64,000 bases of DNA from Yuukianura sp. NJ FZ-2021 (lineage: Eukaryota), in the NCBI GenBank assembly GCA_046563655.1, contig CM102288.1, positions 186,001 to 250,000 on the forward strand, read 5' to 3'. The translations under genes were made by a program, and so were the position numbers. The notes under the pieces were generated by a model. It worked only from the letters and a program-made list of their open reading frames with translations, did no database searches and was not told where the DNA came from. Positions 7,954-49,273 of this stretch are shown here, piece after piece. Position 1 is the stretch's first letter. Each line of letters opens with the position of its first letter.

Positions 7954-9746
7954 CTAGACTGACCCAGAAGATGCTGGACTTCCCCTTCCCTGTCCATCAT
8001 TGTCACCTTCTTCTGCAAAACTGGAAGAGTCCGGATGCGGCGACGGTTGGCGACGTGCTGGATCGTCTGCTTTTTCAGTCGTGTCCATGTCTTCTGATTC
8101 ATGATTTGTAACTACTGGTTCCTTGTCTTTTTCAGGAGAAACTTCCTTATCTGCAAAGTTAAAAAAAGTGTTACTTTTTTATATAACATTTTATTAATAT
8201 ATTTATACATCCAATCATGGATGTAGATTGTAGAATACTGACCTTTGTCTTTGTCGTTGTTGCGATCACGGTGTCTACGACGCTCCTTACGATCACGATC
8301 ACGGCTCTTGCTCCTTGATCGACGACTTTTTCTGTCACGGCTCCGACTCTTAGACCGACGGTCCTTCCGATCACGACTTCTGCTCCGTGAGCGACGGCTC
8401 TTCCGATCCCGACTTCGGCTTCGAGACGACCGCTTTTTGCTCTTACTCTTGCTCCTGCTTCGAGACCGTTTGGATCGTTTCTTCCTATCCGAACTACGCT
8501 TCCGGTCTCTGAAAAATAAAACTAATCTTGAATCGATTTGAACGACAGTGCATGATAAATTGATTGATTACCTGGACGAATTCCGCTTTCGATCTCGCTC
8601 TTTGTCTTTATCCTTATCCCTGGAACGATCCTTATCCTTATCCTTCTTATCCTTGTCACGGGATCGGGAGCGATGTCGTTTCCTATCTCTGTCTCTGTCA
8701 CGATCAACATCTTTATCGTCACGACTGCGGCGACCACTATCACGTCCTCCACCGCGACGAAAACTGTCGTCCTTTCGTCGGTCGGAAGAAGAACGTTCTT
8801 CTCTTCTGCTGCTCAGTCTCCGCTCACGTTCAAGTTCCACTTGTTCGCGTTCATCCTCATCACGCTTCTGGAGTGCCTTTCGAACGTCTTCCATGCTTTT
8901 GCGCAACATGGCAAATCCAACATGCTGTTTTCCCATTATATGGTCATCAAGGCGATGTTGAGCCTCACCGATTATCAAGTATGATCCACAAACTTCGCAA
9001 ACTTGCATGGCCTTGTCAGGATTCCAGGGATGTGCAATTTCATTTGATCTAAACATTAATAACATCGTTAAAGATTAAACATCGTTAAGATTAATATCAT
9101 AAGGCACAGAGTGTATGAAACTGTACTCACTTTAGCTTTTCCCGTTCCTCCTTAATTTGGTCACAAAGTTTCATGATCCCCTGCGCCTTCTCGACGTCAC
9201 CTTCACATCCTGCTGCTTCAGCTTCTTCCAGAAGAGCATTGATCCTGTCCGTAAGAAGCACAATTTCTTCAGCATTCCTACTCCCCGGTCCAGCATAGAT
9301 TCCACCATCAGCTCCATTAGCAGCAGCTATTCTGTGTTTTCCTCTCTTAATCTTGCCCTCGATGTCGGACAGCATCTTCTCAGCAAATCGCAAGAACTCC
9401 TTCTCAAATTGGGATCTTTTGTAAGATGGAGCTTCCTCCTGGTACTTCTTGCGCAATTGATCATCGTGGAATTTGGAACAAGAACCCAGATCCGCCTTCG
9501 TGTTGACGAACAGTTCATGTGGACAGAAACAGACAAGGTAGTATGGACAAATCTAGAATCAGAAATGATTCTAATTCAACCTAATTGATGTTAATTAATC
9601 TTTCCAATCCAATTGTAAAAATCTATCGTAGCTACCTCTGGATCGTCCCACTGTATTTCCTTTGGAACGTCAGTTGGCAATGCATCGCGATTTCTTCCCA
9701 TGAGTTCATCCAAAATATTGGACATGAAATTTTTAGAAGCCATCAT
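7954..9746 (-). CDS. LUC7L3: Luc7-like protein 3 (U1 snRNP-associated splicing factor, RS domain)
   Basis: LDELMGRNRD N-terminus; zinc finger 1 CPHELFVNTKADLG; zinc finger 2 MQVCEVCGSYLIIGEAQHRLDDHIMGKQHVGF; long RS/RD-rich C-terminus. Exons join in frame; stop TAG at 7954-7956. Confidence 0.9.
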
Positions 9747-10137
9747 TGATAACTTTAGAATTGAAGATGAATTAGAATTAGAGCAAAAGGTGACCACCAC
9801 CGCGTTTCCGCTTGGCACCGGACACACAAAAAGTTAAGCTTCTTCGGTTTCCGGCGTTGGCTACTTCCGGGTCAATCACCAAATCAAAATTCGAAATGTT
9901 TGGAACAGAATCAGGATAGATTTAGTTAATTAACTAAAACCAATTAGCGAAAGTGTGAATAAAATGTAAAATCAAAACGCGAACGCGAAGCGAACCAATG
10001 CAGTCTGCAATCAGTAGCGTATAAGGTAAATGATTGCGAAACAAAAATTATATTTTTTAAATAATAAAAAAAAAATCAAACTTTTTCAAAAGCAGCGCCT
10101 AAATGTGAAATTTGGCAAAAATAGTTCAAAAGAGCTC

Positions 10138-10651: not shown

Positions 10652-11383
10652 ATGAAATTGTTGTTGTTGGTAGCCCTGTGCGTGGCTGCTGCTGCTGCTG
10701 CCGGGTCTTCCCAGGGCAAGAACCAGCAAAATGGTCGCTTCTACTTTTACAAAGTGAGGCCAAGGAATGCCCAGCAACTTGAAGTTCTGGTCCAGGAGCA
10801 CCAAGAATACGTAATGTCACTTCAACTTTAACATTTCCAAAATTTCGAATTTCTGAACTTTTGAAAATTTGAAATTTAAAAATTTTGAAGACTGTATTCT
10901 ATTTCAGGGAGACCATCCACCAGTGTGGGTCAACTCGTTCCGAGCTGGAGAATCCGCCTACTGTTTTGTGGACCAATCAAAAACGAGCTTCTTCGAACGT
11001 CTCCTTCGCCAGAACAAAATTCGGTGGGATTCCAAGGGCCTGTCTCTCGTTGAGTCCATTACTGCCAAGCAACCTAGTGCCGCTCAAGGTGAGTAGAGGT
11101 CAAAGGTCAAATGTCAAATATCAAATGTCAGGTCAGAGGTCAAAGGTCGTTGACTTGTGTTTCAGCTGAACCGAAGAACCCGTCGTGTGACTGTGACTAC
11201 CACTCTGGTGGGTGCATGATCAGTGAGCCACCACCGGAAGGCTATGCTTGCAAGTGTGTGTACAAGGGAGCATGGACTTGCACTGGCTACGCCTTCTCCT
11301 GTGACCCCGGAGTTCAGTGCCCTGCAAACTGCTCATCACTCGAATGCTGCAAAACTGGACGCGGAGACTGCGGCGGATACTAA
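10652..11383 (+). CDS. Secreted protein: signal peptide + M14 carboxypeptidase activation-peptide-like domain + 12-Cys C-terminal domain; 3 exons
   Basis: TATAAA at about 10560. Exons 10652-10810, about 10908-11088 and about 11166-11383: MKLLLLVALCVAAAAAAG...FYFYKVRPRNAQQLEVL...VWVNSFRAGESAYCFVD...CDCDYHSGGC...GDCGGY*. Confidence 0.75.
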
Positions 11384-11903
11384 AATTTCAAAAAATATCA
11401 ATTTTCAAAATCGACTACTATTTCGATTTTTCAAATTTAAATTATTTCAAATCCACTTTCCTCAAATGTCTCCGCTCAATGGCTCAATCCACGATCTTAG
11501 CTACAGCCCGAAAATTAGAAATTTCAGCCTTTCTGCAATAAAATTCTTAAACGACGCCAAAATTTGAAAATTATTTTAAAATGGTAACTGTGGAACAATA
11601 AAATTTAATCTGTACGGAAAAAACATCTTTCAAATTCTTATTTGAAATTGCTTTTTAGACAAAATCTGATTGACCCTGAGCGTTTTATGGTCAATTTCAA
11701 TTCACAGAATTTTTGTGACGTGCAAAGATTCATGTTGATTCATAATTTTTGCAGTTTCAAAGGTTAATTAAGCGCTAATTTAATCTATATTATTTTGAAG
11801 ACGTGATTTGTACTAATTAGAGGGAAAATATAAAAGTCCTGCTACCTTTCTTATTCTTCGCAGTTTTCAAAAAAAAATAATTGAAATTACACTTTTTACC
11901 ACG

Positions 11904-12266
11904 ATGAACAAAAATTTATTTTTGGTTTTCGTTACACTACTCTTCGTAGTGATTGTGTGTTGCTCTATCGCTGAAGTGGAGTCACGATGCGGTGAGAATC
12001 TCATTGAAAAAATAATTTAAAAAAATTATTAATGTAAATACATTTAATTCTTTGCTTAAAAAAATTAAAGCACGGCCTGGGAGATTCTGTATCAATCGCT
12101 TTTGTAACCTCTGCTGCGGAAACACACGTAAATTTATACTACAATTAATTAATTTATTATTAATTTTTAATGATTAATTTATATTATAAAATATTTAATT
12201 CATTGAAATTCATTTAATTCAGGAGGCTTCCCTTGTCTCAACGCCTTACGGAGACGCTGTTGCTAA
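11904..12266 (+). CDS. Small secreted cationic 8-Cys peptide precursor (62 aa), antimicrobial/knottin-like; 3 exons
   Basis: TATAAAA at about 11829. Exons 11904-11991, 12071-12127 and 12223-12266 (189 nt, two phase-1 GT-AG introns) give MNKNLFLVFVTLLFVVIVCCSIAEVES-RCARPGRFCINRFCNLCCGNTRGFPCLNALRRRCC*. AATAAA about 20 nt after the stop. Not in the ORF track. Confidence 0.8.
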
Positions 12267-12477
12267 CAAAACCAGAGCCGTTCAAAATAAAAGCAGTAAT
12301 TTAGCTCAAAGAAATTTTAATTTTGTTACAGATAAAATTGAAAATAAATTAGGCGGAGTTTAATTCATAAAATTTTAATTTTAATTACACCTTTACAAAT
12401 TCGAATTACTTTTGTCATGAAACATGAATTACTCCCGAATTACTTCTGAATTAGGTTTGTCATGAATTATTTGCGAA

Positions 12478-14494
12478 TTACTTGAAAAGGCGACGTAGAA
12501 ATGAATTTGTAAAAACTTGTTCTGGGTCATATTTTTTGAAAATTCGCGTACTGTACTCCCAATCTTCTCTTCCATAAACTTCCGGTGGATAATTGTCCAG
12601 AAAGTCCCAGTTGTCCCACCCAGCATCTTTAGAGTAAGCATAGCCCTTGGACCATTCTGGACGCACGATGACCCCTGACCTTGTCAAATTCTGCACCAAG
12701 TACTCCTCCACTCGAGCCATGAACTCCGCCATGTTTGGTGAATTGGGGTAGGTCAAACAGTCAATCCAAATGGCCGTGTCGTAGTCCTTTTTCCCTTCAA
12801 TTGGTTTAATCGGAGACAGAGCTGGTGACCTCAAGGTCAAGCCAGGGTCATCGTCTAATCCGGAGACCCTGATTTCCAGTGGACCATTCACAGGATACTT
12901 CCCAGCATCTGCATAATCCTGGATCAAATCTTCGTAAAATTTAGTAAATTCATGAAGTGTTGATTGGACCCTAGACCTTGGCAGTATCAGTGCATATCCA
13001 TTGGCTGTTACTCGGAGTGTTGTTGGTTTGACGTAGTGCAGAAGGTGGTATGAAGGACCCCAGAGGTCAAACGTCAATGTAGTTGCGAGTCCTGTAACCA
13101 AGGTTCGTAAATAAAAAAAAAACTTTTCTAGACTAGGTTGTCCAATAACTCGAAGTTTTAAAATTTGTTTGAAAGTAGCTTTGGCTTTTTTGCATGTATA
13201 ATAAATGGGATTAAAAGTTGTCTGGAGCAAGATTTTTGAAAACCCAGAGTTATTGGACAACCTGTTGTAGGAAATACAAGTCGGTTGTCAAGGAACCTTG
13301 CCTGTAGCAATGATGCTGATTTGAAGATTTGCAAAAGCTGGAGCCATTGACCATGACCCTGTGACGAGTTTATCTGCTAAGTTGTTGACTGGTTCTGGAA
13401 TGTTGTCTGTAAAAACGTAGTTGTAGGGCGCATGCGTGCGGCGGGAAAGTAACGGTTTTGTGTCTGCGACGGACCAAACTTTGAGCCACGGATTCAATGT
13501 AAACGGAAACCAAATTGCTTCGAGACTGCCGTAAGAGTCTAGGAAAAAGCTTAACGGTGTGTCACCAAATTTCAAGTTTTTGGGACTTTGAAATAGCGTT
13601 TTAGCTGAAATGTCAACTCTGCTTATACATCTTAGGTAGGTCAATGGGGTCACTTCAAGTGTCACTTTGGTAATAAAAAGACGACCGAGATTCAGAATCA
13701 AAGCGCGGGAATCGGGATGTGAGCGATGAAAAGTTTGAATTTCAAATTCTTCCGCGTCGGCATTCCACACGACAAGGTCGATTGACAAAACCAAGTTGCT
13801 CAAAGTACCGCGGTTGCCGGTTTGACCTTCCATAGGAATTCCTGTCCCGTGACCTCCAATGGCAATGACCCCTCCGACAGTAACGTCGCCCGGTGCTGGA
13901 TGACCCAGAATGCCGTGACCTTTGACCTCCAGAAAAGCAAGCAGATCTTCCCAAAGAACGCCAGATTCCACCGTGACTGCTTTTATGCCGTGATGAGTTG
14001 TCATTTTAATAGAGGTCAAATTTTTCGTCGTGTCCACCAGAATGGTGCGACTGCAGTGCCCTTCTTCTCCGGTGATAGTAAGAGGTGACCAGTTGTGCAT
14101 TTGACCCAGTGGTCGAACGTTGTAGCGATGGCGACGTGCCCAGTTGGCTATGGCGACAATGTCGCCAGCACTTTGAGGCGTCACGGTCCAAATGTGGTCC
14201 AGTTCGATTTGTTTGGCCCAGTTGAGATAAGAACTTTCTTGGACAGAGAGATGCTCGGGAAAGTTTGAAAGACCATTGCAAAGCAGTTCTATTAAGAAAT
14301 GAAATGAAATTCAAAATCTCAAAATTTCAAAATTTTTGAAAAATGTAAATTTTGAAGTTACGTTTCGGGGGAATCTGATGGAAACGAGTTTGAGAGGTGA
14401 CAACTTGTTCCTGATTGGCACAAATCCGGGTATTGTTAACAATGGACCAAACGAGACAAGGAATCAAAGAACTTGGGAGCAAACTAGTCTGCAT
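12478..14494 (-). CDS. Class II (covalent-FAD, VAO-fold) cholesterol oxidase-like enzyme, bacterial type; 3 exons, 577 aa
   Basis: Exons 14494-14362, 14288-13302 and 13091-12478 join in frame. Motifs RPLGQMHNWSPL (FAD-linked His), PAPGDVTVGGVIAIGGHGT, APYNYVF, YPVNGPLEIR and RPEWSKG match the Brevibacterium/Burkholderia-type cholesterol oxidase family as I recall it. Confidence 0.85.
13099..13300. mobile_element. 202-bp non-autonomous TIR element (hAT-like MITE) forming intron 2 of the cholesterol oxidase gene
   Basis: TIR CAAGGTTC (13099-13106) / GAACCTTG (13293-13300). Symmetric subterminal inverted 17-mer AGGTTGTCCAATAACTC (13135-13151 vs 13247-13263). Flanking 8-bp direct repeats CCTGTAAC (13091-13098) / CCTGTAGC (13301-13308). 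Confidence 0.85.
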
Positions 14495-15474: not shown

Positions 15475-18400
15475 ATGGGCAGTGAAGAAGAGCAATTCGG
15501 ACAGATCGTCAATACGTTCCTGTCAACAGACAATGAAGTCAGAGTCCAGGCAGAGGTAGGAATTTAATTATTGCAATTTAACAACTTATCATTTTAACAA
15601 CTCACCACGTGTTTCATCAGTTTCCTTGCTTATGGAGTTATGGATGTGTCAATCATGTCAACATTTTATGAAATATCAGATTAAACTCAACGATTAACGT
15701 TACCCAACACACGGTTATAAAATGTTTTATCTTTCATTTCAAGAAATTGCGTAATTGATTTGACGGATCAGCGATAGTTTTCCAAAGTTAAGCACCGGCG
15801 CAGCTGTTTAGTCATGTCAATTTTGTTATTTAATTAGTCTATTATTTAATTTAATTCTAATATAATTAATTGTTGATTTAGGCAAGCTACGATGGTATTC
15901 CAGCTGACAAGAAGATCTTCTTCCTCCTAACACTTCTTCGAAATGGTGATTTGGCAGAAGACTTTCGTCAACTCTGCGCTGTTTTACTCCGACGACTCTT
16001 CGTCGGTAATTTTGAATTTGCATGGAACTTGGTAAGTACATAACGAATCTATCGAACTTCATGAGGTTTATTTTAGTTTCATAATTGTATTTCTTATTCC
16101 AGCTTTCACCAGAGCATCAGAAGCAAGTGAAAGATGAAATCAGCGCCCTCGTTTCGCGAGAGAACGAGAGCATGACGATGCGGAAGAAGATGTGTGATAT
16201 GGTAGCCGAACTCGTCCGAAATCTAATTGATGACAATGGGAACAATACGTGGGGAGAATTTTTGACTTACTTGTTTCAACTCGTCAACAGTCCAGTTCCA
16301 GCTCTCAAAGAAAATGCTCTCCTCATCTTTGCCGCCGTTCCAGGAATCTTTGGAAACCAACAAGTCAATTACCTGGACTACATCAAACAAATGCTGGGAC
16401 AAGCTTTTCAGTCTGAAGTGTTCTCGGTCCGATTTCATGGAGCTCGAGCTCTGGCTTACTTTATCGTGGACAATGAAACGCAAGAACCAGTTCTCAAACA
16501 CTTCTCGGACCTTCTACCACACTACTTGAAAGTCATGCAAGAATCTGTTACGCAACAAGAAGATGACGACTTGCTAAAGATGGCAATTGAGCTCATCAAC
16601 GGAACTCCGAAGTTCGTGAGACCATTCTTAGCTGACTTTCTGAACTTGAATCTCCAAATTGCCAAGGCAGGAGAAATCGACGAAGACTGGAGACATTTAG
16701 CCATTGAATGCTGTGTAACTGCATCAGAAACGTTACCAGGAGCTGTCAAGAAAGTTGCTCCAGAATTTATTCCATTGCTGGTTCAAACGGTAATTATTAA
16801 AAAAACTTTGACCTTTGCCCTGACTCTGATTGTGATTGCATGTCTTCTTTTTGATCAGCTGTTGAGCATGATGACTGAATTGGACGAAGAGGATGACTGG
16901 GCCACGTCAGATGAGCCATGCGATGATGACTCAGATAGCAATGCGGCAGTGGGAGAATCTAGTTTGGATCGTTTGGCATGCGGATTAGGAGGAAAGACGA
17001 TTCTGCCAATGGTTATGGCTCAGGTTCAAACAATGTTGGGACATGCCAATTGGCAACATCGATATGCTGGTCTCATGGCCGTGTCAGCAGTTGGAGAAGG
17101 ATGTCTCAAGCAAATGGAACCAATGCTACAGCAAATCGTGGATCCAATCCTGGGATTCCTTCGTGATCCAGTAAGATTCAAGTTTTTCTTTTTACAATAA
17201 AACTGAATTATGATTCAATTTTAATTAATTTTGTACAATTAGCATCCTCGTGTTCGATACGCCGCTTGCAACGCCTTAGGCCAAATGGCAACTGACTTTG
17301 CTCCTTCGTATGAAAAGAAGTTTCATGCCAAGATTCTGCCAGGCTTGACATTCCTCTTGGACGACTACAGCTGTCCACGCGTTCAAGCCCATGCTGGTAC
17401 GAAAGTTCTTTTTCAAAATACTTTTCAAAAAACTGAAAACTGAACTGTTTCTAAAAAGTATTTCCATTGCCAATATGTTTAGGTGCTGCGTTGGTAAACT
17501 TTTGTGAAGAATGTCCGAAGGACATCCTCAAGATGTACTCGGAGGCTCTTTTGTCCAAACTGGAGAGTTGCTTCCAACAGAAGCTGAAGGAATTGGCTGA
17601 GAGCAACAAGAAATTGGTACTGGAGCAGTTGGTGACAACGGTTGCCTCTGTTGCCAACACACTGGAAACTGACTTCATTCCTTACTACGCAAGATTCATG
17701 CCCTGCATGAAGTATATCATGCAACATGCAAATGCTGTGGAACTTCGTTTGCTTCGTGGAAAAACGATCGAGTGTGCTTCATTGATTGGACTGGCGGTGG
17801 GTGCTGATCAGTTTACGAACGATGCTTCGGACATCATGGATCTCCTTCTGCGTACTCAAATTGACAATGGTAAATAAATGTGTTAAAAATGAGTTATAAA
17901 AATAGCATTACTTTTGAAATGAGATTTTCACTTTCAAATTTTCACTTTGACTTTCAGGAGGAGTACACATTGCCGATGATGATCCACAACTGTCCTACAT
18001 GATTACTGCGTGGGCAAGAATCTGTCAAATTCTAGGTAATAATTTGCCTAATTTGATCTTCCGAAATCCAATTCAACTAACAAACTTTTTTATGAGTTTT
18101 TTTTGTTCAACTTTTATGTTCTAACTCAAAGGTGATCGGTTCGCACCATATTTGCCGATGGTCATGGCCCCCGTGCTAAGAACTGCTGCTGTCAAACCCG
18201 AATTGGCTATGCTGGATTCTGATGAAACTGAGGTAAGAAAGTGACTTGAGACTTGGACTTCAATTTTTTCTGCCTCATGTTCAAAAAATATTCAGAATTC
18301 AAAAAATTCTCTACGTTTTGTGTTGATTTTAGGAAATCAAGGGAGCTGAAGATTGGGAGTTGATTCAGTTGGGAGATTCGCAAAGTGTTGGTTTGCATAC

Positions 18401-19987
18401 GGCTAAGCTGGAAGATAAGTCCATGGCTTGTCAAATGTTGGTCTGCTACGCTCGTGTCATGAAAACTCACTTTCGACCATTCGTCGATGAGGTATTTATT
18501 ATTGAATTAATGCGTTTTGTATAATTTTACTTAATTTTTTAATTTTATATTTTAGGTTGTCAAAATCATTCATCCGTTGTTCAAGTTTTACTTTCACGAC
18601 TCGGTGCGTTCGTCTGCTGCAGAATTGGTTCCATACCTTCTACAATGTTTGGAAGGAGACCAATCTGCGCAAGTGATGCTGTGGAATCACATCAAGGGAG
18701 AACTGTTTATTGCAACAGAGGCAGAAGTGGAACCGGAAGTCAAGAGTGAGCAATTGGCAGCAATTGCAGCAGCAGTGGACATTTTACCCAAAGAAGCCTT
18801 TGATACAGACACAATTCAGAAGATGACAGGCATAGTGGAGAAAGTGTTCACAGAACATTTTGAGCGGTCAGCAGAGCGAGCAGAGACACGGAAGGATGAG
18901 GACTTTGATGAAGTTGTGGAGCAGCAACTGTGGGATGAAGCGGAAGAGGACAATTATGTTCTCACGAAAGCAGCCGACATCACGCACGCCTTTCTCAAGT
19001 CTCATGGAGAAGCATACTTGGCCTACTTGGAGCCGAAAGTGCTTGAGCAAGTGACGAAACTCATTGCACCGGACAGACATTGGCAAGAGAGACAATGGGG
19101 CATCTGTATCTTCGATGACATTATAGAATTCACTGGACCAATGGCTGCCAAATACTACCAGCTCTTTGTACCCCAATTGCTGCAGTATGTCTCGGACTCA
19201 ACGTCGGAAGTACGACAAGCAGCAGCATACGGATGTGGACTCATGGCTCAATACGGGGGAGTACCATTTGCAGGTATTTTCAAGTTTTCGCACTTTCTTA
19301 TAAGCAAAAATACCGTATTTCCTCGCCTAAAAGCCTAATTTATACTCGGTTTTCCCGGGAAAATTTTTCGAAATTTCTCAGATAACACGTAGTCTTACAC
19401 GGTAGTATTATGTAAAATGTAAAACTTTGAATTTTGAATTTGTTTGAACAGAAACATGCTCCCAGGCGATGCAACTTTTGGTCAGAATTGTGACTGCACC
19501 GGATTCACGTGAAGAGGAAAACATCTTTGCCACTGAAAACGCCATCTCTGCTGTTGGAAAAATCATCAAATACTCCCCGACGAACTTGAATCCGACAGAA
19601 GTTATTCCGATGTGGTGAGTGGAAAAAAATTACGCTAATTTTTAAATTTTTGGAAAAGTATAATGGTTTTCATTTTTTTTAACGTTTAGGCTCTCCTGGC
19701 TCCCAATTTGGGAAGACAAGGATGAAATGGAATCCGTTTTTGGATTTTTCTGTGAACTTTTGGAGACGGATTCCCCAGCAGCCATTGGAACGAACGGAGC
19801 CAACCTTCCTCTGATTGTGCGTATTATCGCTGATACTTTTCTGCGTCAAGTCCTTCCGGATGACTCACCCATTCGACCAAGATTGATTCAATTGCTAACC
19901 AAGATCCGAGGAAATGCAGAACTCTTTCAATATTGCTTCAATCAATTGTCACCGGAACAGCAGACTGCTCTCCATCAAGCAGTTTGA
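15475..19987 (+). CDS. IPO5: Importin-5 (karyopherin beta-3 / RanBP5), multi-exon
   Basis: HEAT-repeat protein with [83 protein letters not shown] and [12 protein letters not shown]. Confidence 0.95.
19311..19404. mobile_element. Degenerate Tc1/mariner-type MITE in an IPO5 intron
   Basis: Starts TACCGTATTTCCTCGCCTA, nearly identical to the TIR at 20617, and ends ...GTCTTACACGGTA. Confidence 0.5.
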
Positions 19988-22677: not shown

Positions 22678-23615
22678 TGGAAAAAGTGTGAAACTACTTG
22701 TTCAGAAGAGGTGTAAAAACTATTGATTCCTTCACTAGTAATTAAAAAAAATTGAGCTATTCAATTAAAAAAATGAACTTTTCAATTGAAAAGGTACGAG
22801 TCTTTTAATTCCAATGTTTATAATGTCTAAGTTTCAAACATGTTTTGTTCACATGGCAACAAAACAAAATTAAAATGAAAGGCATTTAAAAAGAGAGGGC
22901 GACAACAAATAAAATTTCCAATGTTTTCTCGCTTTCAATAAAAATTTTACTTTCACTGTGCGTTGGCTTACATCTCAGACAAGGTTAATCATCATTCACT
23001 TGTCCATTTGGTCGAAGTAAACTTTATGGTGGGCAATTGTTTTCCAATTTCGGGAACAAATTCGGCAAAACGGCCACTCGATTTTTTACGATTAAAATTT
23101 CGTTTTATATCAACTTTTGGGTGTAGATTCCGAATCTGAAATCCGTTTAATTGTTGCTGTTAAATGCTAACCAAACCTAAAATATAAGCCCAATTTCGAA
23201 ATTTCAAGTATAAAGGTTTTGTTGACTTCTACCGTTGGTTTTGTATACGCATTAAATCGATTTACACATATAGTTCAATAGAGTGCTGAAAAACGCTGAA
23301 AATGGTTTAAGTACATAAAGTCATTGCTTTTTCTTGATCAAAACGCACTAGAAATTGAAATTTTAAGAGGACAGTTTGGACTGAACCATTTTAGGAGACG
23401 ATTATGATCTTTAATTAAAACACTTCCATAAAAACCCGAAAATTACTCCCAATTTGAGCTTAATTGAAAAAGAAACAATAAACTTCCTATTCAATTTTGA
23501 TCACTTTTTATTTAAAAGGGACGCTGCCTTTTTTTAGTGAAAGTCAGCCAACCAGGTCCGTGTTTTGCTAAAAGAAAATTTCTCATTTTTTGAACAGAAT
23601 TTTTCAAAATTGAAA

Positions 23616-24942
23616 ATGGCCGTTGAAGAAATGGAGAAGAAGAGTAATCGGTTGGCTCCAATATTTGGGTTGTACAAATCCTACTTTGCTGCAATAAGGC
23701 TCATGGGCATATTTCCATACGAAGTTAACGTTGACCTTGCTCAAGTTGACCTGCGTAAAGGTCACCTCTGGACAGCATTCAACTACTTTAACTTTGTCTA
23801 CATGACTCTCTACTGCATCAAACCACAAATACTGTTCTATCTCAACCATCGCTCCAACTACCAATTCGAAACTGTCCAAAATGGATACATTTTCCAAATG
23901 ATTTGGATTTTCGGATTCTTCACTGTCACGCCCATCTTCATGACGTTTTTCTTCTACTCCGAAATCATCCGGACCACAACTTCAATCTGGCTCAGACTTG
24001 AACAATATGTAGCAGGTTTTACAAAAATTTCAAAATTTAAAAAAAAAATCAAACTTAAAAATTTTTTAATATGTTTTGATTCTTTTAAAATCAGACCATC
24101 TGAAGGAAAGCGATGAAGGAATTGCAAAACGCACAACTTTTTTAAAACATCAACTTTTGTGCTACGCTGGAGCTTGGTGGGGCTGTTTGCTAACGATGAT
24201 CCCCATCACATACATCATTCCCCGCTTCCCGCCATTTCTCAATTCAATTTACTTGGATGACCCCAAGGTCAACCCCGAAGCAGGGTCAAGGTCACCGGGT
24301 CAAATTTTGATCCAATTCACTTTTTCCACTTTGGAGCTCCACATAAGCATCATGGCTTGGGGGCTCATCGGAGGGTTTGATGTCCTGGTGAGCATGATTT
24401 GCCGAAGTCTGTACAAGATCATAGATCGCCTCAAAGTAGAGTACATTCTAAGGGTCAGAGGTCACCAAGAGGTCAGTGACCTCATCTCCATCTACCGCTC
24501 ATGCCAAATAGTTGCTACTCAATTCGGAACTATTTTTTCGCGCCTTTTGTTTTTCCAAGAAATGACGAACCTTGTTTTGTCGGTGTTTTTGCTGGTGGGG
24601 GCCCTTAATGGGGACAACGCCATTCTGAGTACGTTCTGCCTCTGTAATACATTTGGAGTCACTCTGCGCATGTACGTGCTGTATCTCCCCATGGCCAAAC
24701 TGGCTGTCAAGTCAAAGTCGTTTGTTCAATTTCTACGCAGAGAGAAGAAAGGTCAAGGTCAAAGGTCAGGGAGGTCATTGACCTTGGAGGAAAAGAGACT
24801 CCTGGATTCTGCTAAACCGTTTGCTATAAAAGCTTGGGGGTTCCATAAAATAACGCCTACGTCTATTCTGGACTACACGCTGGCCCTTGTCTCCTACTAT
24901 GTCACCATCAAACAGGTCAAGGCCGCTGAATTTCTGGAGTAG
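23616..24942 (+). CDS. Gustatory-receptor-family (7tm_7-like) chemoreceptor; 2 exons
   Basis: RLMGIFPY near the N-terminus, multiple TM segments, and C-terminal AWGFHKITPTSILDYTLALVSYYVTIKQ matching the GR TM7 signature. Phase-1 intron 24016-24094. Confidence 0.8.
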
Positions 24943-25369: not shown

Positions 25370-27217
25370 ATGGAAATGGGGGAACATAGTCGAAATGTCA
25401 AAAGTGAGGACAGAATTGAAGTTGTTGAAGACGAGACAAGGATACCCAAGGAGGATTCCATAAGTAAGGAAAATTGGTTTTGAATTTTGAAAAATTTGTC
25501 AAAAAATGGCAGTTTTTTTTTGAAATTTTTGTTTAGTTCCACTAGAACGATGTGCGTGGTGTTTCAGTTTGCGGGGAGTTGCCATTTCCAGTATCACAGT
25601 CATGGTGGTTGTGGCCATTTTGGTTTTTGTTTTGGATTTTACCGTTCTCGAAGTTCATCGTATGAAAAAAATAGAATATGAAACAAAGAAATTTGAGATG
25701 TTTCAAGATGGCGGACGACTTGAAGCAGAACCGACATTCCAAAACACTTTTTACTTGAAAACGATTGACCTCAACCAAGTAGAGGCAAATGTATCTGTCC
25801 TCTATGACTTCATGACCTCGACTGGATATTCACTCGAGGTCATTCGTCTCCGAGATTTAAAACTTACCGGGACTCTACCAAATAAGTACAGAGGTCACAC
25901 AAAATCACAAAATCATTTTCACAAATTCTAAAATTCAGTTTGATTTCTTCCAAAATTTTAAAAATTTGGTTTCTCTTTCAAAATTCAGAGCATGGACTCA
26001 GTCGGTACGCCCTGAAAGAATTTGTGTTTGAATCCAACGAGCCGATTGGTCCAACGGCCAATTTTCAACTTGATGACTGCGACGAATGTATCGTGGAAGG
26101 AGTAAATTCAAGTTTCGCCGCAATTCAAAAGTTGCGCTGCCTTCCTTCGCTTCTGTTCCACCTAAAGAGTGCAGAGGTGATTTGGTTGGGAATTCATCCG
26201 TCTGACCCCATGATCATGGACGGAAACATTACGCTAAATATCTACGGTCGATCGCTTCTGCGCGTCATACACTCAGATTCCAGAGAAGACTATGACGTCA
26301 CAAGCATGATCAGCGACTGTGAACCAATCATCGGCTGGTACAGGTTCAACCTCAAAAAGTTAGCACTCAGTGGATGCACTTTAACTGCAAACACTTTAGC
26401 AGCTATTCTGCGCACTGGAAAATTAACCCACTTGACCCTGGACCGGGTCAACTTGACCGAGTTCCCGGGAGGCGTGAGGATGTCTCAACTTTTTCAAAGT
26501 GCTTTAAATTTAGAACAACTCACGATCAAAATGCATGCATTCAAAAGCAACGGAATCTTACAAAGATCACACTTCACAAATCCACAATACGCTGTTTTGA
26601 TGACAGACTTTCCACGTTCGTTGAAAACTTTAATTTTGGCAGGAGTTTTCATTTTGAGTCCAAAGCTTGACCCTATCAGAACCTATTTGACCTTGGACAC
26701 TCTCAGACTCAGCGACATCAACTTTCAAAATCAATATGCATTGGACTGTTTTCAAAACGGAATTGAGTTCAAAAAACTTGCTTTTCGACAAGTTCAAATT
26801 CAAAATGGAAGCCAAATTGGAAATATTTTGGAGGATTCAACAGTTTGGATTCCGTTTTTGGACAAAGCGATGGAGAAAGCAAACTGGATTTGGATTGAAA
26901 ATCCTTTCTATAGACCGTACAGTTTTTGGTACAGAAATAAAGTGGAATCTGCTGGAAATCCAGGAACTTTAAAACCAACCATCGATAACGAATTAGCGGC
27001 ATGGAAAACTTGGCTGCGAAAAAGAGGAATTGACGATCTGCTTCTACACGATGACCCAGCTTTTAAGTTAATAAAGTCTGAAGGTCAAGGGTCATGGGAA
27101 ATGGAGACAAGCCATGACGGGTCACCGCCAGAAACTCCAAACGCTGCACTTTGGTTCCACTTTTTACGAATGGGCACGTTTCTCAGAGAAAATCTATGGA
27201 ATATAGTCGATTGGTAA
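25370..27217 (+). CDS. Uncharacterised type II-like membrane protein with LRR-like repeats; 3 exons
   Basis: Short acidic N-terminus, one TM (ITVMVVVAILVFVL), then repeated LxxLxL units (LKKLAL, LTHLTL, LEQLTI, LKTLIL, LDTLRL) in the 425-aa ORF. Confidence 0.6.
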
Positions 27218-35817: not shown

Positions 35818-38800
35818 ATGTCTATTTTGGAAGACTATTTGGACGTCCCAACTGGAACGACTGGAGATATGAATTCCAGTGGTGAAGATGGAGGGAGTAA
35901 CTATGATCCTCCTGAAGATGAGTATCGCGTGTCTCTTCCAGCCGGCATCTTCTTAGTTCTCTCCTATGGAATCATCTTCCTAATGGGCATTATCGGGAAT
36001 TCATTCGTTGTGGCTGTAGTCGTGAGATCACCCCGAATGCGAACCACCACCAATTTCTTCATTGTCAATTTGGCTCTGGCGGATCTGCTCGTCGTTGTGC
36101 TCTGTCTCCCCACCACACTCATCTCCAACATCTACTCATGTAAGGAAATGTCTAACAGCACTTGTCATTAGTCACATTTTTACATTTTATATTAAACTTT
36201 AAACTTATATTAATCCTTAATGGAAATGCGGCACAAGCTGGTGAAAGTTGGGGATGAGAACAAAGTTTTGTGGGTAGAGAAAGTTGAGTGTTTTACAATT
36301 CTTTTTCAAGAGAAAGGAGAGACGCCGCTCGACTTTAATTTTCACCAAAGACAAAATTGGTCCCGTCACTCCGCATATTTTCAAAAGTGTAAAGCGTAGT
36401 TCACACTCCTCATTTTTTCACGCCCGATTCGCGTTCCGCAAATTCGCGAAGGAAGACGCAACTGAATTCCTGCGTAAACGTACACCTCAGTTTGACTCAT
36501 GAAGTGAAAAAAAAATCACAAAATAAATATTAATGTACAACTTTTTTTATTGCGAAACAAATATTAAAACAAGAGAAAATATTTAAAAATTACTAAACAG
36601 AACGCACAAATGCATACACGTTTCGTTTTTTCAAGAATGCATAAGAGGTGCAAACGAAAGTTGAAGTTTGAAAATTCAAATTTTCGAAGTTTTTGTGAAT
36701 GGATGAGGTGAAAGTGTAAATACTTGAAATAGAAGAGCAGAGGAACGCCTACACGTTATTTGGAGGGTGTAAAGGGGGCTTAAGGTTACAAATTGAGATG
36801 GTTGGAGATGAGATGAGATCTGAGTGGAGATAGTGTCAGTTGGAAGTGGGTGGTCGTCACTTGTAGACGCGGCGGTGTTTTTTCCCACCGTGGTGGGTCA
36901 GCGTTAAGTGTCCCACCACTAGAAATGGAACCGTACTTCCGCTACTCTCTGCCTGTGTCCCTAATCTGGATCCTCATGTACGCCTTTGTGTTTATCTCTG
37001 GGATCATTGGGAATTCAGTTGTGACTCTTGTCATTCTGAGAACTAAAAAGTCAGTGACGGATTACTTCCTCCTTAACTTGGTGCTCGCTGACCTACTCGT
37101 CCTCATCTGCTGTCTCCCATTCACACTTCTAGCAAATCTCATCAACCGTAAGACCATGGCCTAACACAACCTAAGCACACACTTACTGGCAAAAACAGTT
37201 TAAAAAATAACTAAAAACTCAATTTTAGCGAATTCGCGAATTTAATTAATTTCGAATTACCTAAGAGAATTAGAAAGAAAGTGAAATCCTGGCTTAATTT
37301 TAAATGGGAAAGGATTACTACATCTGCAGACTAAACTTTTAAACAGAAAAGAGCAATAGCTTAGAACTTTAGGGAAAACTTATACTAAAAAATGAATGCC
37401 GAAGTTGCAAATTGAAGCGTTGTGATTTTTGATGGAAGAATTTGTGTGGGGATGCGTTAGGATTTAGCGCTTGTAGGTTCCGATATGATGCTTACAGTGT
37501 GGACAGTAGCTGTTTCAATTAAAAAAGAAAGTTGAGTCCGTTTTTGAAACTTTGATGAATGAATATGAGTAAAACTTACTGCGATGCATCTTTGGCACAA
37601 TCGGTCAAGTATGGAATACAAGCACAAGGCCAGCACAAACTGAAATAATCAGATGTAGATTAATAAGGGGTAAAAATAGTTCACAAAATGACTAATGGGC
37701 AAATGATCTGAAACTTACAAGCAGCAAATCCTGTTGGAAACAAGATAAAAAATCAAAATTAGTCATCAACTTTTCGGAAAATTAGTTTTTAATTGAAAAC
37801 TACTATTTTCACACGGAATTTGAAAGCGAATTTTGGTGAATGACTTACACGAGGCAGCAGATATGTGTCATCATTCCTGTTTCATAAGTGACCCGGGTAG
37901 TGATGTCAGCACGACAATGTGGACATGTCGTTCTGACGGGTTCTGATCCCAGTCCGACGACCGGAGTGACAATTATGGTCGTCGTCCCATGTCGCCCTGT
38001 CGTGGATGTCGGCTGAATTTGGATTGTCTGTGGAGCAAAAGTGGCGTGGTGGTTGTTTCCATAGATGGTTGTGATCGTTGGGTGGGGCGGTGGTGGGCCA
38101 CATGGTTGTGTTGGTGGGCAATAGGTTGGTGGGTCTGTGGGGTATGGTGGGGGTGGAGATGCGTAGGATCCAAATCCGGCTGGTGGTGGAGCTGCCCCAC
38201 CTTGTCCAGGGGCATGATCTTGCTGTTGCGTTTCTTGTGCCTTGAAATTTGGGTTTTCCATGTCCAAGGCGTCACTAGACAAACAGATTTGCAAAAAAGT
38301 GTTGTTTTTTTTAAATTCTGCAATTCATTGTGAATTTTTATTTTGATTAACGCCTTCCGTCAGTCTTACACACGTTAAAACCAAAACGCCTGAATTCCAT
38401 GATGAAATTTCTGTTGAACTCACCTTAACGTTTCAATTAACTTGAGAACTTGAAAAATCCCACTCTTTTAAGTAAAGTTTTCCGAAGGTGCAAACTTTTC
38501 TAAAGTGTCGCAGAACTCTTTTTGTTAGGATGCGTTAAATGCTCAGCCTGTTGGATATCTCTTGTACTTCTGCAACTGTTCGGATATTGAAAAATGAGGA
38601 AACTAATTTGTCACTTCCAGCGATTGACGTCAGATCTAAAAAGTAAATACAGATACGTTTATGATTACAAATGTCACAAAATTGAGCTTACCACACCTTT
38701 GTAGCAGCATAAAGTCAATGCACAATACATTTAGAACTCTCCATTTAATAACCTTTCCCCACTTTTATCTCTAGCTTTTATAAAGTAGATTCTAAAAGGA

Positions 38801-41800
38801 AAACCATGAAGTATGGATTCAGCGTTACGCTGAATCCATACTTCGTGGTTTTCCTGTTCCATTCCCGTTGCATTATTCCATTCAATTGTGCATCCACGGC
38901 ACCATCCATACTTTTCATCGAGAATAATTCTCGTAGAAATCGAAAACGGCATGATACTATTGTGGAAATGTCGCAGGAATGCAATCGTAGTATGGATGAC
39001 AACATGCATTAGTAATGGAATGGAACGGGAATGGAATGAGAACGGAAATGTAAAATGAAAAAGTATGGATTCAGCATAAGGTTATCTTCACATTGCAACT
39101 TCAAACGGTAGATTCTAATTATTTTCAATCAAATTTTAGTCACATTTAAAGCAGCTGCTTTGAACAGTATGATAAATAATTCAAACAAATTATTGCAATC
39201 TGAAAAGGGAATCATTTTACTGTTGTAAATACGACGGCATATTACTTTCGGTAAAACTTATAGCAAAATATTTTGAATTTTAATATGAAAGTGCTAATTT
39301 AAGTAAAATATGACCCCCAGCAAAGGCGTTGTGGTCTGCGATCGAAGAATTAGCGCTGGTGGGTTCCGATATATTTTTTGCAGTTTGGACAGGAGCTGTT
39401 TGAATTAAAAAAAAGCTTTGTCAATGTTTTGTTGAAGTTTGAAATTTGAGTAAACTTACTGTACTGCATCTTTGGCACAATCGGTCAAGTATGGAATACA
39501 AGCACAAGGCCACCACAGACTACAAAGTCATAATCATCGGATTTAAATTAAAGATTTAAAATGAGTAATTGTTAAATGATGTGTGATTTTAATCAAAACT
39601 TACCAGCAGCAAATCCTGGTAGGAAACAGGATAAATAGAATTAAAAATTAGTTATAAATTTCGTAATTTCTGGACAATTGCAAATGTGAATTTCAAAATT
39701 AGTTGTGTTTAATTGCTTACACCATGCAGCAGAGATGTGTCATCATCCCCGATTCATATGTGACGCGGGTAGTAATATCAGCATGGCAGTGCGGACATTC
39801 TGTTCGGATCGGTGCCGATCCAAGTGCGACGGCTGGGGTCACAATGATTGTCCTCGTGCCAGGACGACCTGTGGTGGATGTCGGTTGAAGATGGATTGTC
39901 TCTGAGGTCAAACCAGCGTGGTTTCTATTTCCATACATAGTTGTTAGAGTTGGGTGGAGCGGTGGTGGGCCATATTCTGCTTGCAATGGCGGGTAATAGG
40001 CTGGTGGCTCCGTAGGGTAAGGTGGTGGAGATGTGTATGGAGCAAATCCTGGTGGTGGTGGTGCCGAGCCATCTTGTCCCGATGCATCGCCTTGCTGCTG
40101 CGCCTCTTGTGCCTTCGAATCTGCATTTTCCATCTTGAAGAAAGAAAAAGTTTGTGTAACTAAATTCTGCAATTCATTGTATTTTTATTTACCCTACATA
40201 AATCCTACTCACCCTAAAATTAAAAGGCGGAAATTAATCATAATTGTGTACTCACCTTAATTGCTTGATTACTTTCAAATTTCCACTGCTTTTAATCCGA
40301 GTGTTTGTGTCTCCGGAAGATCAAAAACGTTTGCTAAACTGCTGTAGGGTCCACTTTGTTTCACACCTTGTTGCTTGTCTGTTGTTCTTCAGCAGTACTC
40401 TTTTGTCAATCGAAATGATTGTCACTTTGAGCGATTGGCGTCAGATCTAAAAGATAATCTTGTGCCGCAGAGATATGACACAAATCATCATACGTTGTAA
40501 GAGTGAATGCACAATTCATAATGGAACTCAAATCAGCAACCTACGCAACTTTTCCCCACTTAAATCCCTTTGATGCTACTTTTAACAAGAATAGCTTTTA
40601 ATGTTACACCATACTTCTTATAATTGCAACCTCAAATTAGATTCTCAGAAATGAACTTCGTCAACCTAATGTACATCAACAAATCCACCTCATACAAGTT
40701 CCAAACTTCTCTTTTTGCAATTTTTACTTTAAACTAAAAACAGTTCTCAGAAGTGTGCTCTGAAGGGGTTCAATTGCTTACAAAAGTTTTTAAAACGTGA
40801 TTTTCAGGACAGTATTTGTCGAAATGAAGCGTGAGAGAGACAATGATGCTGAAAAATTGGAAAATTTTCATTTCTTTTGTGTCAATACTCAAATGGAAAT
40901 TGATACCTGCGGGCTTTTAGAAACATGTAAAAAGGCGAGTCGGCAGATTTCATTTTTGTGAATTTAGCAATAATGGTTTTAGTCGCCCTCCTTTTTCAAA
41001 GTTTGCCCCCTGTCTCCATTAAACGTGTCTTGTGAAAACTGTGCTAAGTGGTCCCCAGCGTCTCGTAATTTTGGATCCTACTCAGGCGAATAAACGCATT
41101 TCAAATGTACTCACATAAAACCAACTCTTGAGCCAAACGATTTTGGCGGATTTCAAACATTTAAACACAAAGACTACGCAATGACCTCATTCCTTCTTCT
41201 AATTCTCGGAAATATTGCTGTACCTTCGATGTAAAATAGAAAGTTAATTAAAATTGAGAAAAACGCAATTAGCGAGAAGATTCTGTTTCACTCCGCCTGT
41301 CTGCGTTCATTTCCTTTGAAAAGTAAACATCAAAGTCAATTCAAAAAATAAAAGGGGCCTCCGGTTGTTATTTGATGGTTTGTAGACAATGTGGGAAGTT
41401 TTCACATGAAAAGTGTGTTTTCGGTTTCCAGTTGGTTTAAATTCCCAATTTACGAGAAGAATCTAGAATGTAGATGAGTTCATGTGGGCGTTGCTAGGTA
41501 ACTGGATAGATTCTTCCTCCGTATCTTCATGTGGTTCCTACAGAATAAATCAAATTGAGGACATAAACTCAGAGACAGTGGTGGCGACTGAATTTTATGT
41601 GGTGACACAATTTATGTCCAAATTTGAGTCAACCCGCCCTTTCACACACTAAACCCTCACTTTTTAGCAACTTGGTCACCGGGAGACTTAGAACTTAACG
41701 CGTCTAGGATCTGATTATTAATTGGTCTATATTAGCAAAGTGACAAGGCAACTGGAAATGGGCGGAGACAGACGCAAAGACTTGGACTTTAGTCAAAAGC

Positions 41801-47480: not shown

Positions 47481-48480
47481 TTAGCGACGATTGTTTCCAG
47501 CGTAGACGTTGCCCCAAGATTGTGCTTGACCTTGTTGTTGCTGTGAGGTCATTGTTTGACCTTGACCTTGACCTTGAGGGGATCCCGTGTAGACACTGAA
47601 TTTGGGTTGCCCTGGTTGAACTGCAGTGGGCTCCTTGAGTCCACTGTAGTTAGCCACTGGCTCAAACGACACAATTCGCAGTGGAGTGGAACCATCTTCA
47701 GGTTGAGCTGCTCCACCTACAAGAATAAAAAAAATGAAATTTTGATTTTTGACCTTTGAACTTTCCAATTTTTTAAATTTTTACCCATTCCAATTCGAAT
47801 TTGGCGGTTGGCATTTGGATCGCCATTTCCCGGAGCCATGCTCACTTGCAACCCTTGAAGCCCCGTCTTTCCTCCAAGAAGGTCTTCCCAGTTCATACGA
47901 ACGTACTGGACATTCGGATTGGCTGAAAAATAATCCAAAAAATTCACAATTAAAAAAAAATTAAAATTTTGAAGAAAATGTTCGAGAACAAAAAGTTACA
48001 TTCAACTTCTGGTGGAATTCCGTTTGTCGTGGCGTACGTCTTCATGCCAGCCGGCATCACCATTTGTCCACCGCTCCCGCCAGATTGAGCCACCGCCTGG
48101 GCATGCTGTTGTTGTTGTTGTTGCTGTTGTTGTTGTTGCTGTTGTTGTTGTTGTTGCTGTTGTTGGTGCCCATATCCGGGGGGTGTCGATCGTGCACGGG
48201 CCATCGATCCACCATTTGGTGGCGCAGCGTAGTAGCGTTGCTGTTGCTGCATCTGCTGCGGAGACTGTTGCGTCCAGTTGTGTCGCTGCTGCTGCTGCTG
48301 CATTCCGTAAGGCATGCTGCCATAGACAGAATTGGACGAGCCGATCCGGTTCATGGACCCTTGACGACGAATCGCTGCCGATCCGGGAGGGTAGTTGTAC
48401 GCAGTCTGACTCGGCACAGGAGTAGCCGTGTACCGTCCTGCTGGACAGCCTTGACGTGACGAATAAGAGTTGTTGTACAT
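47481..48480 (-). CDS. Gln/Gly-rich low-complexity orphan protein with a polyQ tract; 3 exons
   Basis: ATG at 48480 (MYNNSYSSRQG...), about 20 Gln (CAA/CAG, 48106-48165), then exons carrying NVQYVRMNWEDLLG and ...WGNVYAGNNRR*. GT-AG introns. Confidence 0.65.
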
Positions 48481-49273
48481 TTTTACTTTACTTGGTTTCA
48501 ACTTTCAAAATTACGAAAATTCAAACGGAAAGATTAAGTTTTCAAAATTGAAAAATTGTCTGACAAAAATACGTCCTGCTTCTAGCTTGCCTAAACTTAT
48601 ACTGAAGATGGAAAACAGACCTAGAACATTGGCATATCCAACTGAAATTTTTCAACAAGCTATTAGGTTTGCTAACAAACAGAATGTTAACAGGCGTCAT
48701 GGTAACAGAAGTTTTGAAAATTTTTGAGACAACTTATACAGTTTTTGGATTGTCTTTTCTTTAATTTTTTTTCCAAAAAGTGACAGTGTTACAAAAGTGG
48801 CTAAAAGAGAGAATTGCTAAATTTGAAATTGTATAATGTTTCAACCACGATTTGGCTAGCATTCTTTGGGTTTTGTGTTTCAGAATTTCAACAAGGTACA
48901 TTTTAGATGTCTAACAAGGGACTTTTCAAAAAAGTTTTTTTCTTTTTGAAAAAAAAATTGAGCTCTTCTCATTTGCTTCCTCATTTTTTCTACTTGTCGT
49001 CAATCTCATCCGACCTTTTTCTACCGAATTCTTCCGATTGCTTCCGAACTCTTCCGATTTCGCAATTCGTTCTGTTGTACTTTTAACTTGGTGGAGGGAA
49101 GTGAACACTTTTTGAATTTGGCACAGAATGGATTGGAAGTGCTAAGGACTAATGAACAAGTTGACCTCGTGTGCATTAGAGGTCATTGACCTCGGGGTCA
49201 TTCGAGGTCATTGACCTCATACGGTTGTTTCCCTGTCGATCCTTATGTACTCGACTGCTGAATGGGCGTTGTA

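Follow-up and report, generated by a model that had tools for sequence, protein, structure and literature searches.

A putative class II cholesterol oxidase gene of probable bacterial origin, with predicted introns, in the genome of the springtail Yuukianura sp. NJ FZ-2021

A gene predicted to encode a class II cholesterol oxidase lies on the minus strand at positions 12478–14494 of the stretch of springtail DNA analysed here, which comprises 64,000 nucleotides of the Yuukianura sp. NJ FZ-2021 genome (GenBank assembly GCA_046563655.1, contig CM102288.1, positions 186,001 to 250,000 of the forward strand) and is referred to below as the window, with positions counted from its first letter. The gene, hereafter the oxidase gene, is accompanied on its two sides by host genes, namely a LUC7-family gene (8571–9833, minus strand) and a complete IPO5 (importin-5) gene (15475–19984, plus strand), in agreement with the placement between conserved animal genes given in the initial annotation, which had been made from the sequence alone. 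That annotation had described a class II cholesterol oxidase of 577 residues acquired horizontally. Its ATG-to-stop span proved exact (ATG at 14494–14492, TAA at 12480–12478), the length was reproduced, and both expected Pfam domains, FAD_binding_4 and Chol_subst-bind, were found.

The gene model consists of three exons, all on the minus strand. Exon 1 (14362–14494), which encodes the leader, runs from the ATG through 44 codons plus one base and is followed by intron 1 (14289–14361; 73 nt, GTAACT...AG, phase 1). Exon 2 (13302–14288, residues 45–374) encodes the flavin adenine dinucleotide (FAD)-binding domain together with the first third of the substrate-binding domain, and is separated by intron 2 (13092–13301; 210 nt, phase 1) from exon 3 (12478–13091, residues 374–577), which encodes the remaining substrate-binding domain and the TAA stop. 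Joining the exons by these coordinates gave a spliced model of 1734 nt and 577 aa with 0 internal stops. The GC content was 44–47% in the exons compared with 18% and 34% in introns 1 and 2, respectively.

For the two spliceosomal introns proposed initially, homology and splice consensus support both, but the border of intron 2 is GC-AG (CAG/GCAAGG ... TTACAG/G, the slash marking the splice junction), with a GC rather than a GT donor, a point absent from the initial annotation. On the unspliced strand, two open stretches in the same frame (14310–13291 and 13287–12481) are parted by a single TGA (13290–13288), which falls within intron 2. The protein junction produced by removing this intron (IATG/LATT) aligns gap-free to the cholesterol oxidase structure 3js8, and the spliced protein matches P0291, a metagenome protein, in a single aligned segment of 392 aa that spans the junction. 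Moreover, CAG/GCAAGG fits the usual consensus of GC-AG introns. A GT-AG version of intron 2, with its donor three codons on (AAG/GTTCCT), was considered and rejected, as its donor is in phase 0 and the frame is recovered with none of the phase-0 acceptors. For the 5' part of the gene, the frame of exon 2 is closed upstream at 14310 and holds no ATG ahead of the FAD-binding histidine, and therefore a separate upstream first exon is required. The ATG at 14494 was the sole upstream ATG with a good phase-1 donor (AAC/GTAACT). An alternative first exon from the ATG at 15102, which also has a phase-1 donor, was discarded for its length of 12 codons and its poor splice site. Directly past the stop codon, inspection by eye revealed six copies of the hexamer TAATTC within about 90 bases (12395–12480, minus strand) and, beyond these repeats, a candidate poly(A) signal of the ATTAAA type near 12385.

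As judged from its sequence, the predicted product is a class II (VAO-family, covalent-FAD) cholesterol oxidase with a complete catalytic core. Exon 2 matched the Pfam FAD_binding_4 model, a PCMH-type FAD-binding domain, with an E-value of 1.1e-15 and 58 bits against a cut-off of 26.4, as well as profile positions 2–110 of Chol_subst-bind (PF09129; 1.3e-29), and exon 3 matched positions 111–320 of the same profile (2.6e-62). Jointly the two exons span positions 2–320 of its 321, with the domain split by intron 2. A search of the PDB at E <= 1e-3 returned three chains only, all of them cholesterol oxidases (3js8, 1i19 and 2i0k). The best, 3js8_A, matched exon 2 at 2e-83 (query residues 3–330) and exon 3 at 2.7e-48, and 1i19_A matched the two exons at 1.4e-66 and 1.2e-37, with nearly equal scores for 2i0k. 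A chance match is excluded because solved cholesterol oxidases were matched at values as low as 2e-83 and 2.7e-48. The competing assignment raised in the initial annotation, an L-gulonolactone or D-arabinono-1,4-lactone oxidase (ALO), was ruled out, the ALO model reaching 6e-08 on exon 3, where Chol_subst-bind reached 2.6e-62, and the PDB matches being confined to cholesterol oxidases.

The active-site motifs MHNWSPL (14080–14100, minus strand; residues 108–114) and EIR (12868–12876, minus strand; Glu446-Ile447-Arg448), which had been reported as intact, were found to be so. In the alignment to the Brevibacterium sterolicum enzyme (1i19_A), His109 (14097–14095, minus strand) falls on the FAD-linking His121, and the EIR residues align with Glu475-Ile476-Arg477 of the same enzyme. 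Counted along the alignment, His109, Glu446 and Arg448 correspond to residues 69, 423 and 425 of the 1i19 chain, and an offset of 52 gives His121, Glu475 and Arg477. In the B. sterolicum enzyme, His121 is the site of covalent FAD attachment, and Glu475 and Arg477 are described as crucial for catalysis (PMC7588053). The column of the FAD-linking histidine (H64 of exon 2) was invariant in a 13-row alignment of the oxidase with 12 bacterial sequences (alignment A1). In addition, Glu301 of the oxidase is located in an EAIWFPFT block and aligns with the residue that we take to be Glu311.

The relatives of the oxidase met in database searches were predominantly bacterial. With exon 2 as the query against 5.8 billion proteins, 931 matches were obtained at E <= 1e-10. 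The best 120 of these showed 42–49% identity, and all organism-named rows among them were bacterial (Micromonospora, Plantactinospora, Sorangium, Solimonas, Burkholderia and others). Metagenome contigs yielded 227 relatives (the best 80 at 41–48% identity) and prokaryote genomes at least 589 (the best 80 at 39.3–47.3% identity over the best tblastn segment), while an exhaustive search gave 523 representatives at E <= 1e-3, including 144 at <= 1e-30, with the best full-length ones 40–44% identical. Among 20 of the 523 representatives that were looked up, the sole eukaryote-named one came from another springtail, Allacma fusca. No bacterial sequence more than 49% identical to the oxidase was present in the protein, metagenome-contig or prokaryote-genome collections or among the exhaustive-search representatives. 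A further homology search, with exon 3 as the query at "near" lengths, gave two matches that added nothing, P0398 (42% identity) and P0399 (53% over 46% of the query), and the Protein Atlas returned generic FAD_binding_4 clusters only.

Comparison of the N-termini points to a replaced leader. All 12 bacterial sequences of alignment A1 carry an N-terminal leader, with the twin-arginine RR in 11 of them, and SRRxFL stands in these homologues where the oxidase has its exon 1 leader, the start of exon 2 coinciding with the start of the mature part of the bacterial sequences. The SRRxFL/twin-arginine translocation (Tat) leader is absent from the oxidase, and the two arginine columns, 99% conserved among 80 bacteria, read Asn-Thr. 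Such a loss is as expected for a eukaryotic host, and the Tat leader marks the bacterial members rather than the catalytic family. The role of the Tat motif has been described (PMC7588053). The separate first exon with a weakly hydrophobic leader, as proposed in the initial annotation, is likewise predicted here. Assessed from hydrophobicity alone, exon 1 has a hydrophobic core at residues 9–19 with a mean Kyte-Doolittle value of 2.13, its first 22 residues are uncharged, and the 577-aa protein contains no further membrane-like segment by the same measure. The bacterial Tat leader appears to have been exchanged for a new first exon coding for a eukaryote-style hydrophobic leader.

The setting and composition of the gene are those of its host. 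The LUC7-family gene, downstream of the oxidase gene, was recognised in three open reading frame (ORF) pieces (Pfam LUC7, 2.6e-43, 2.4e-20 and 2.8e-4). The multi-exon IPO5 gene was identified by Pfam (TPR_IPO5, 5.7e-56, plus importin repeats, 16085–19335, plus strand) and by tblastn with the IPO5 of the springtail Orchesella dallaii, residues 1–1095 of which were covered by eight segments over 15475–19984; the IPO5 gene in the window is therefore complete. For the largest IPO5 exon, the best database match was O. dallaii (56%), and the next named matches were insects at no more than 48%. These matches of one gene, taken on their own, indicate a hexapod host, most probably a springtail with no proteins of its own in the database. 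The IPO5 and oxidase genes stand head-to-head with 980 bp between their ATGs, so that host genes lie within 1 kb (IPO5) and 2.7 kb (LUC7) of the oxidase gene on the same sequence. The oxidase coding sequence has a GC content of 0.465 and a GC content at third codon positions (GC3) of 0.460, compared with 0.454 and 0.451 in the pooled LUC7 and IPO5 exon pieces. In 80 bacterial genome homologues, the median GC was 0.72 (0.59–0.76) and the median GC3 was 0.94 (0.66–0.99). The amino-acid make-up differed in parallel, with a FYMINK fraction of 0.244 in the oxidase against 0.134 in the bacteria and a GARP fraction of 0.237 against 0.362. The oxidase gene is linked to host genes, has a host-like composition and carries predicted introns.

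To describe how the sequence has been maintained, the oxidase was aligned with the 80 bacterial proteins and the columns were binned by their conservation among the bacteria. The oxidase keeps the consensus in 54 of the 57 invariant columns (95%), and this share falls to 72% of the columns conserved at >= 90% (79/109), 45% of those at 70–90% (54/121), 31% of those at 50–70% (35/112) and 19% of those below 50% (27/141). The three lost invariant columns are conservative replacements (Leu to Ile, Ala to Leu and Ala to Val). Among the columns at least 97% conserved in the bacteria, two of the altered ones are simply the lost twin-arginine of the leader. Such a gradient, after a complete turnover of composition, indicates purifying selection on the same structure, as neutral decay would not yield it. 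The oxidase gene therefore appears to have been maintained, or domesticated, a view that draws on sequence conservation only.

Apart from the bacterial homologues, three animal-like relatives were identified. The first, P0268 (CAG7719742.1), is annotated as "unnamed protein product, partial" of Allacma fusca and contains FAD_binding_4 and Chol_subst-bind (PF09129, 4.9e-95). Its model merges a cholesterol-oxidase homologue (residues ~30–580) with a Peptidase_M28 domain (residues 772–974) and probably represents two neighbouring genes fused by annotation. The other two are metagenome sequences: P0291 (396 aa), the nearest relative found, with 50% identity to the oxidase over 392 aa, and P0392, a 284-aa N-terminal fragment. 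All three keep the catalytic residues of the oxidase. Furthermore, P0291 and the oxidase have in common a 4-residue deletion beside the GGHGTG loop and the C-terminal ...VFTNxFLxxLFK. In P0291 and P0392 the family homology breaks off mid-frame, at sites differing from the oxidase introns, which suggests that these two genes, known from protein only, carry introns at other positions. The oxidase seems to belong to a small clade of AT-rich, leader-swapped and probably intron-bearing copies.

Two phylogenetic trees were built. Tree 1, inferred with the quick setting of IQ-TREE under posterior mean site frequency (PMSF) profiles, included 97 rows (the oxidase, all 80 bacterial genome loci and 16 proteins picked from the exon 2 protein search) and placed the oxidase outside a starred 59-row clade, of which 52 rows were labelled Actinomycetota and 7 were unlabelled. 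The oxidase joined a long metagenome row in this tree, a position that carries a long-branch warning. Tree 2 included 66 rows, namely 37 of the 80 loci picked by eye to represent the clades of tree 1 (43 left out), 23 of 150 listed representatives (full-length and distant ones being preferred), two proteins from the exon 2 protein search and four trimmed animal-like rows. In this tree, the oxidase and P0291 were sisters (95, starred), and the four animal-like rows formed one group with a support of 83 in the Shimodaira–Hasegawa-like approximate likelihood ratio test (SH-aLRT), nested within a starred (96) set of 59 rows. Under midpoint rooting, seven deeper rows lay outside this 59-row set, one of them in a cluster named from an Actinomycetota metagenome-assembled genome (MAG). 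After Dayhoff-6 recoding, the oxidase, P0291 and P0392 remained together (90), and the Allacma row no longer joined them (23). The oxidase and the Allacma copy may stem from one acquisition or from two, the single origin having an SH-aLRT support of 83 that is lost on recoding. The direction from bacterium to springtail is inferred because the distribution is patchy, homologues occurring in hundreds of bacterial lineages but in only one or a few springtails. The bacterial origin proposed initially is thus borne out by the homologues, the organism-named ones in the best 120 of 931 being bacterial, but not by a tree that identifies a donor, as the trees name none, are unrooted and place the oxidase on a long branch.

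Taken together, the most probable reading, to which we assign a probability of roughly 70%, is that the oxidase gene is a nuclear springtail gene derived from a bacterial class II cholesterol oxidase, acquired horizontally long ago, maintained since, and encoding a secreted sterol oxidiser; the horizontal acquisition put forward in the initial annotation is supported. After the transfer, the gene would have taken on the base composition and third codon positions of its host, gained two spliceosomal introns and had its twin-arginine export leader swapped for a first exon with a eukaryote-style leader. The protein would then enter the secretory pathway, attach FAD to its own His109 and, outside the cell, oxidise the 3-beta-hydroxyl of a sterol with O2 to give 3-ketosteroids and H2O2. 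Eukaryotes are known to possess secreted VAO-family enzymes with covalent FAD, for example the berberine-bridge-enzyme-like oxidases. Possible substrates include cholesterol, phytosterols and fungal ergosterol, and the enzyme might serve in the handling of dietary or fungal sterols or act as a membrane-damaging, peroxide-producing enzyme of defence or digestion. For a soil hexapod, which as an arthropod cannot synthesise sterols and which often feeds on fungi, these two uses, the treatment of sterols from food or fungi and a digestive or defensive role, are the likeliest. The bacterial relatives are reported to accept cholesterol, sitosterol, stigmasterol and ergosterol, and to form cholest-4-en-3-one or its 6-hydroperoxide (PMC7588053). 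A more far-reaching version can be offered only tentatively, in which a gene captured a single time by an early springtail has persisted over hundreds of millions of years in several lineages, namely the window species, Allacma and the sources of P0291 and P0392. The secreted enzyme would then attack fungal membranes through their ergosterol, in feeding on fungi or in defence against them, or would provide a sterol-auxotrophic animal with a novel route for processing dietary sterols or ecdysteroids.

Several observations weigh against a maintained, secreted sterol oxidiser of bacterial origin. The introns and the first exon of the oxidase gene are predictions from homology and splice consensus, and the leader has neither a basic n-region nor an obvious cleavage site of the Ala-x-Ala type. 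The end branch of the oxidase in tree 1 is very long (2.03 changes per column; median 0.14), and the function of the enzyme may therefore have shifted. In addition, eight columns of the catalytic domain that are at least 97% conserved in the bacteria are altered (e.g., Glu to Gln200, Arg to Ser299 and Trp to Tyr524). As far as the trees can place it, the oxidase is attached by a long branch to the base of the main bacterial clade, with no donor named. Moreover, the animal-like rows form one side of a branch of an unrooted tree, and the tree alone is compatible with a very old vertical origin.

The length of that branch (2.03 against 0.14), the eight altered columns, the 4-residue deletion beside the GGHGTG loop that also occurs in P0291, and the atypical leader would all fit a change of substrate or role in the animal, with the fold and flavin chemistry kept. 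The enzyme could, for instance, oxidise ecdysteroids at C3 and so inactivate the hormone, or act on another secondary alcohol, perhaps inside the cell. In insects, ecdysone is oxidised at C3 by a GMC-family oxidase that is not related to the present enzyme, and such chemistry is thus useful in hexapods, which counts for this explanation. We nevertheless consider it unlikely, as the Pfam model of the cholesterol oxidase substrate-binding domain is matched end to end, the Glu and Arg that serve in gating and catalysis are retained along with 54 of the 57 invariant columns, and no feature of the sequence indicates a specific new substrate.

Less probable still is that the gene is a relic, silent or in decay since its transfer, with an intact-looking frame that is unexpressed or mis-spliced, as might be read from the non-canonical GC donor and in-frame stop of intron 2 and from the weak leader. 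Such a relic would hardly retain 1734 nt free of stops after its GC3 had shifted from about 0.94 to 0.46, nor a conservation that steps down from 95% in the invariant to 19% in the variable columns. Furthermore, the donor CAG/GCAAGG agrees with the GC-AG intron consensus, and the same catalytic residues recur in P0291, P0392 and the Allacma protein.

Vertical inheritance of an ancient eukaryotic gene that disappeared nearly everywhere else seems very improbable, even though a branch with SH-aLRT 83 has the four animal-like rows to one side in an unrooted tree and could carry the root. One springtail was the sole eukaryote name met among the homologues, midpoint rooting leaves the seven deeper rows, with one from an Actinomycetota MAG, outside the starred (96) 59-row set, and the exon structure varies among the relatives, P0291 being continuous across the intron-2 site. 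Finally, bacterial contamination fused to animal DNA by an assembly error, an artefact that is frequent in general, is the least credible explanation here, given a frame broken by two AT-rich introns, a GC3 (0.46) equal to that of the host exons and far from the 0.66–0.99 of the 80 bacterial homologues, no bacterial match above 49% identity in the collections searched, no Tat leader, and host genes within 1–2.7 kb on both sides.

Other features of the window were noted in passing. Between the LUC7 and oxidase genes, a stop-free stretch on the plus strand (11093–11380) ends in a Cys-rich tail with 14 Cys in about 66 residues, reading ...CDCDYHSGGC...CKCVYKGAWTC...CCKTGRGDCGGY and then a stop. 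A pyrimidine-rich AG precedes this stretch, which has no Pfam match at E <= 0.1 and may form the terminal exon of a gene for a small, secreted, cysteine-rich protein. A short ORF at 11817–12020 (plus strand), without a Pfam match, starts with the signal-peptide-like MNKNLFLVFVTLLFVVIVCCSIAEVES... and could be the opening exon of a gene for a further small secreted protein. It lies on the strand opposite to the oxidase gene, whose 3' end is 460 bp away. In the Arg/Ser-rich tail of LUC7 (8115–9074, both strands), the repeat itself produces long ORFs in at least four frames, and these do not represent genes. ORFs of 191, 290 and 443 aa at 23541–24939 and 25886–27214 (plus strand), without Pfam matches at E <= 0.001 (two of them at E <= 0.1), are probably lineage-specific genes, and the first ORF at 23541–24939 opens with a hydrophobic, membrane-protein-like sequence. 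Two similar minus-strand ORFs about 1.9 kb apart (37848–38324 and 39720–40184) start with MEN(P/A)..KAQE.QQQ, continue into a proline-rich stretch (...APPPP.GF..Y.SPPP) and look like tandem paralogues. The triplet-repeat tract at 47953–48504 contains long, overlapping ORFs in several frames of either strand, with runs of Leu, Val and similar residues, and is either low-complexity coding sequence or a non-coding repeat. Additional host genes on the minus strand were recognised by zf-MYND (45158–45589; 6.1e-11) and DUF7805 (50152–51276; 1.5e-16), and a weak CUB match was found at 53036–53542 (minus strand; 5.4e-06).

New here are the recognition of the homologue in Allacma fusca, annotated without a name, and of the clade that the two metagenome fragments form with the oxidase. 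No report of the cholesterol oxidase family in any animal was found in the literature searched, to which the supplements of the 2026 compendium of metazoan horizontal gene transfer (PMC13342648) did not belong. Many genes of microbial origin are well documented in springtails by the genome papers of Folsomia candida (PMC5490193) and Orchesella cincta (PMC4987106). In two supplement files of the former the word "cholesterol" occurs 0 times, and in the main text of the latter "cholesterol", "sterol" and "oxidase" each occur 0 times. Insecticidal activity is ascribed to bacterial cholesterol oxidases (PMC7588053), and the retention of an enzyme of this type by an arthropod raises questions as to where it is produced, which sterol is oxidised and how the animal's own membranes are protected. 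If the gene indeed acts on fungal or dietary sterols, an animal would be making use of an enzyme that is known elsewhere as a toxin of the insect gut. Moreover, the gene would offer a clean example of what becomes of a secreted bacterial enzyme after transfer, with the leader replaced, introns at sites that differ between lineages, the composition fully changed and the catalytic core kept.

Among solved structures, the oxidase most resembles 3js8, a VAO-family class II enzyme presumably from Chromobacterium sp. DS-1, the database entry naming only "Cholesterol oxidase". Both domains align end to end, with the same His, the same Glu-x-Arg pair, the same EAIWFPFT block and the same position of the C-terminus. 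The springtail gene differs in being AT-rich, in its two predicted introns, in a non-Tat leader on an exon of its own, in the 4-residue deletion after the GGHGTG loop and in its animal host. The B. sterolicum enzyme BCO (1i19, with 2i0k as a variant), whose His121, Glu475 and Arg477 have their counterparts in His109, Glu446 and Arg448, is more distant than 3js8, and its alignment with the oxidase splits in two around query residues 277–282. Among the animal-like relatives, P0291 is uninterrupted across the site of intron 2 in the oxidase gene. The Allacma protein resembles the oxidase in keeping MHNWSPL and EIR, in lacking a Tat leader and in its AT-rich amino-acid make-up (FYMINK 0.268), but is only 38% identical to it, below the bacterial homologues, is without the 4-residue deletion and has a different neighbour, the Peptidase_M28 of the merged model, from those of the oxidase gene in the window. 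The genes of microbial origin described for Folsomia candida and Orchesella cincta represent the same type of event, in the same type of host, as that proposed here, in which a gene for a bacterial enzyme has come to lie, with introns, between genes of the host.

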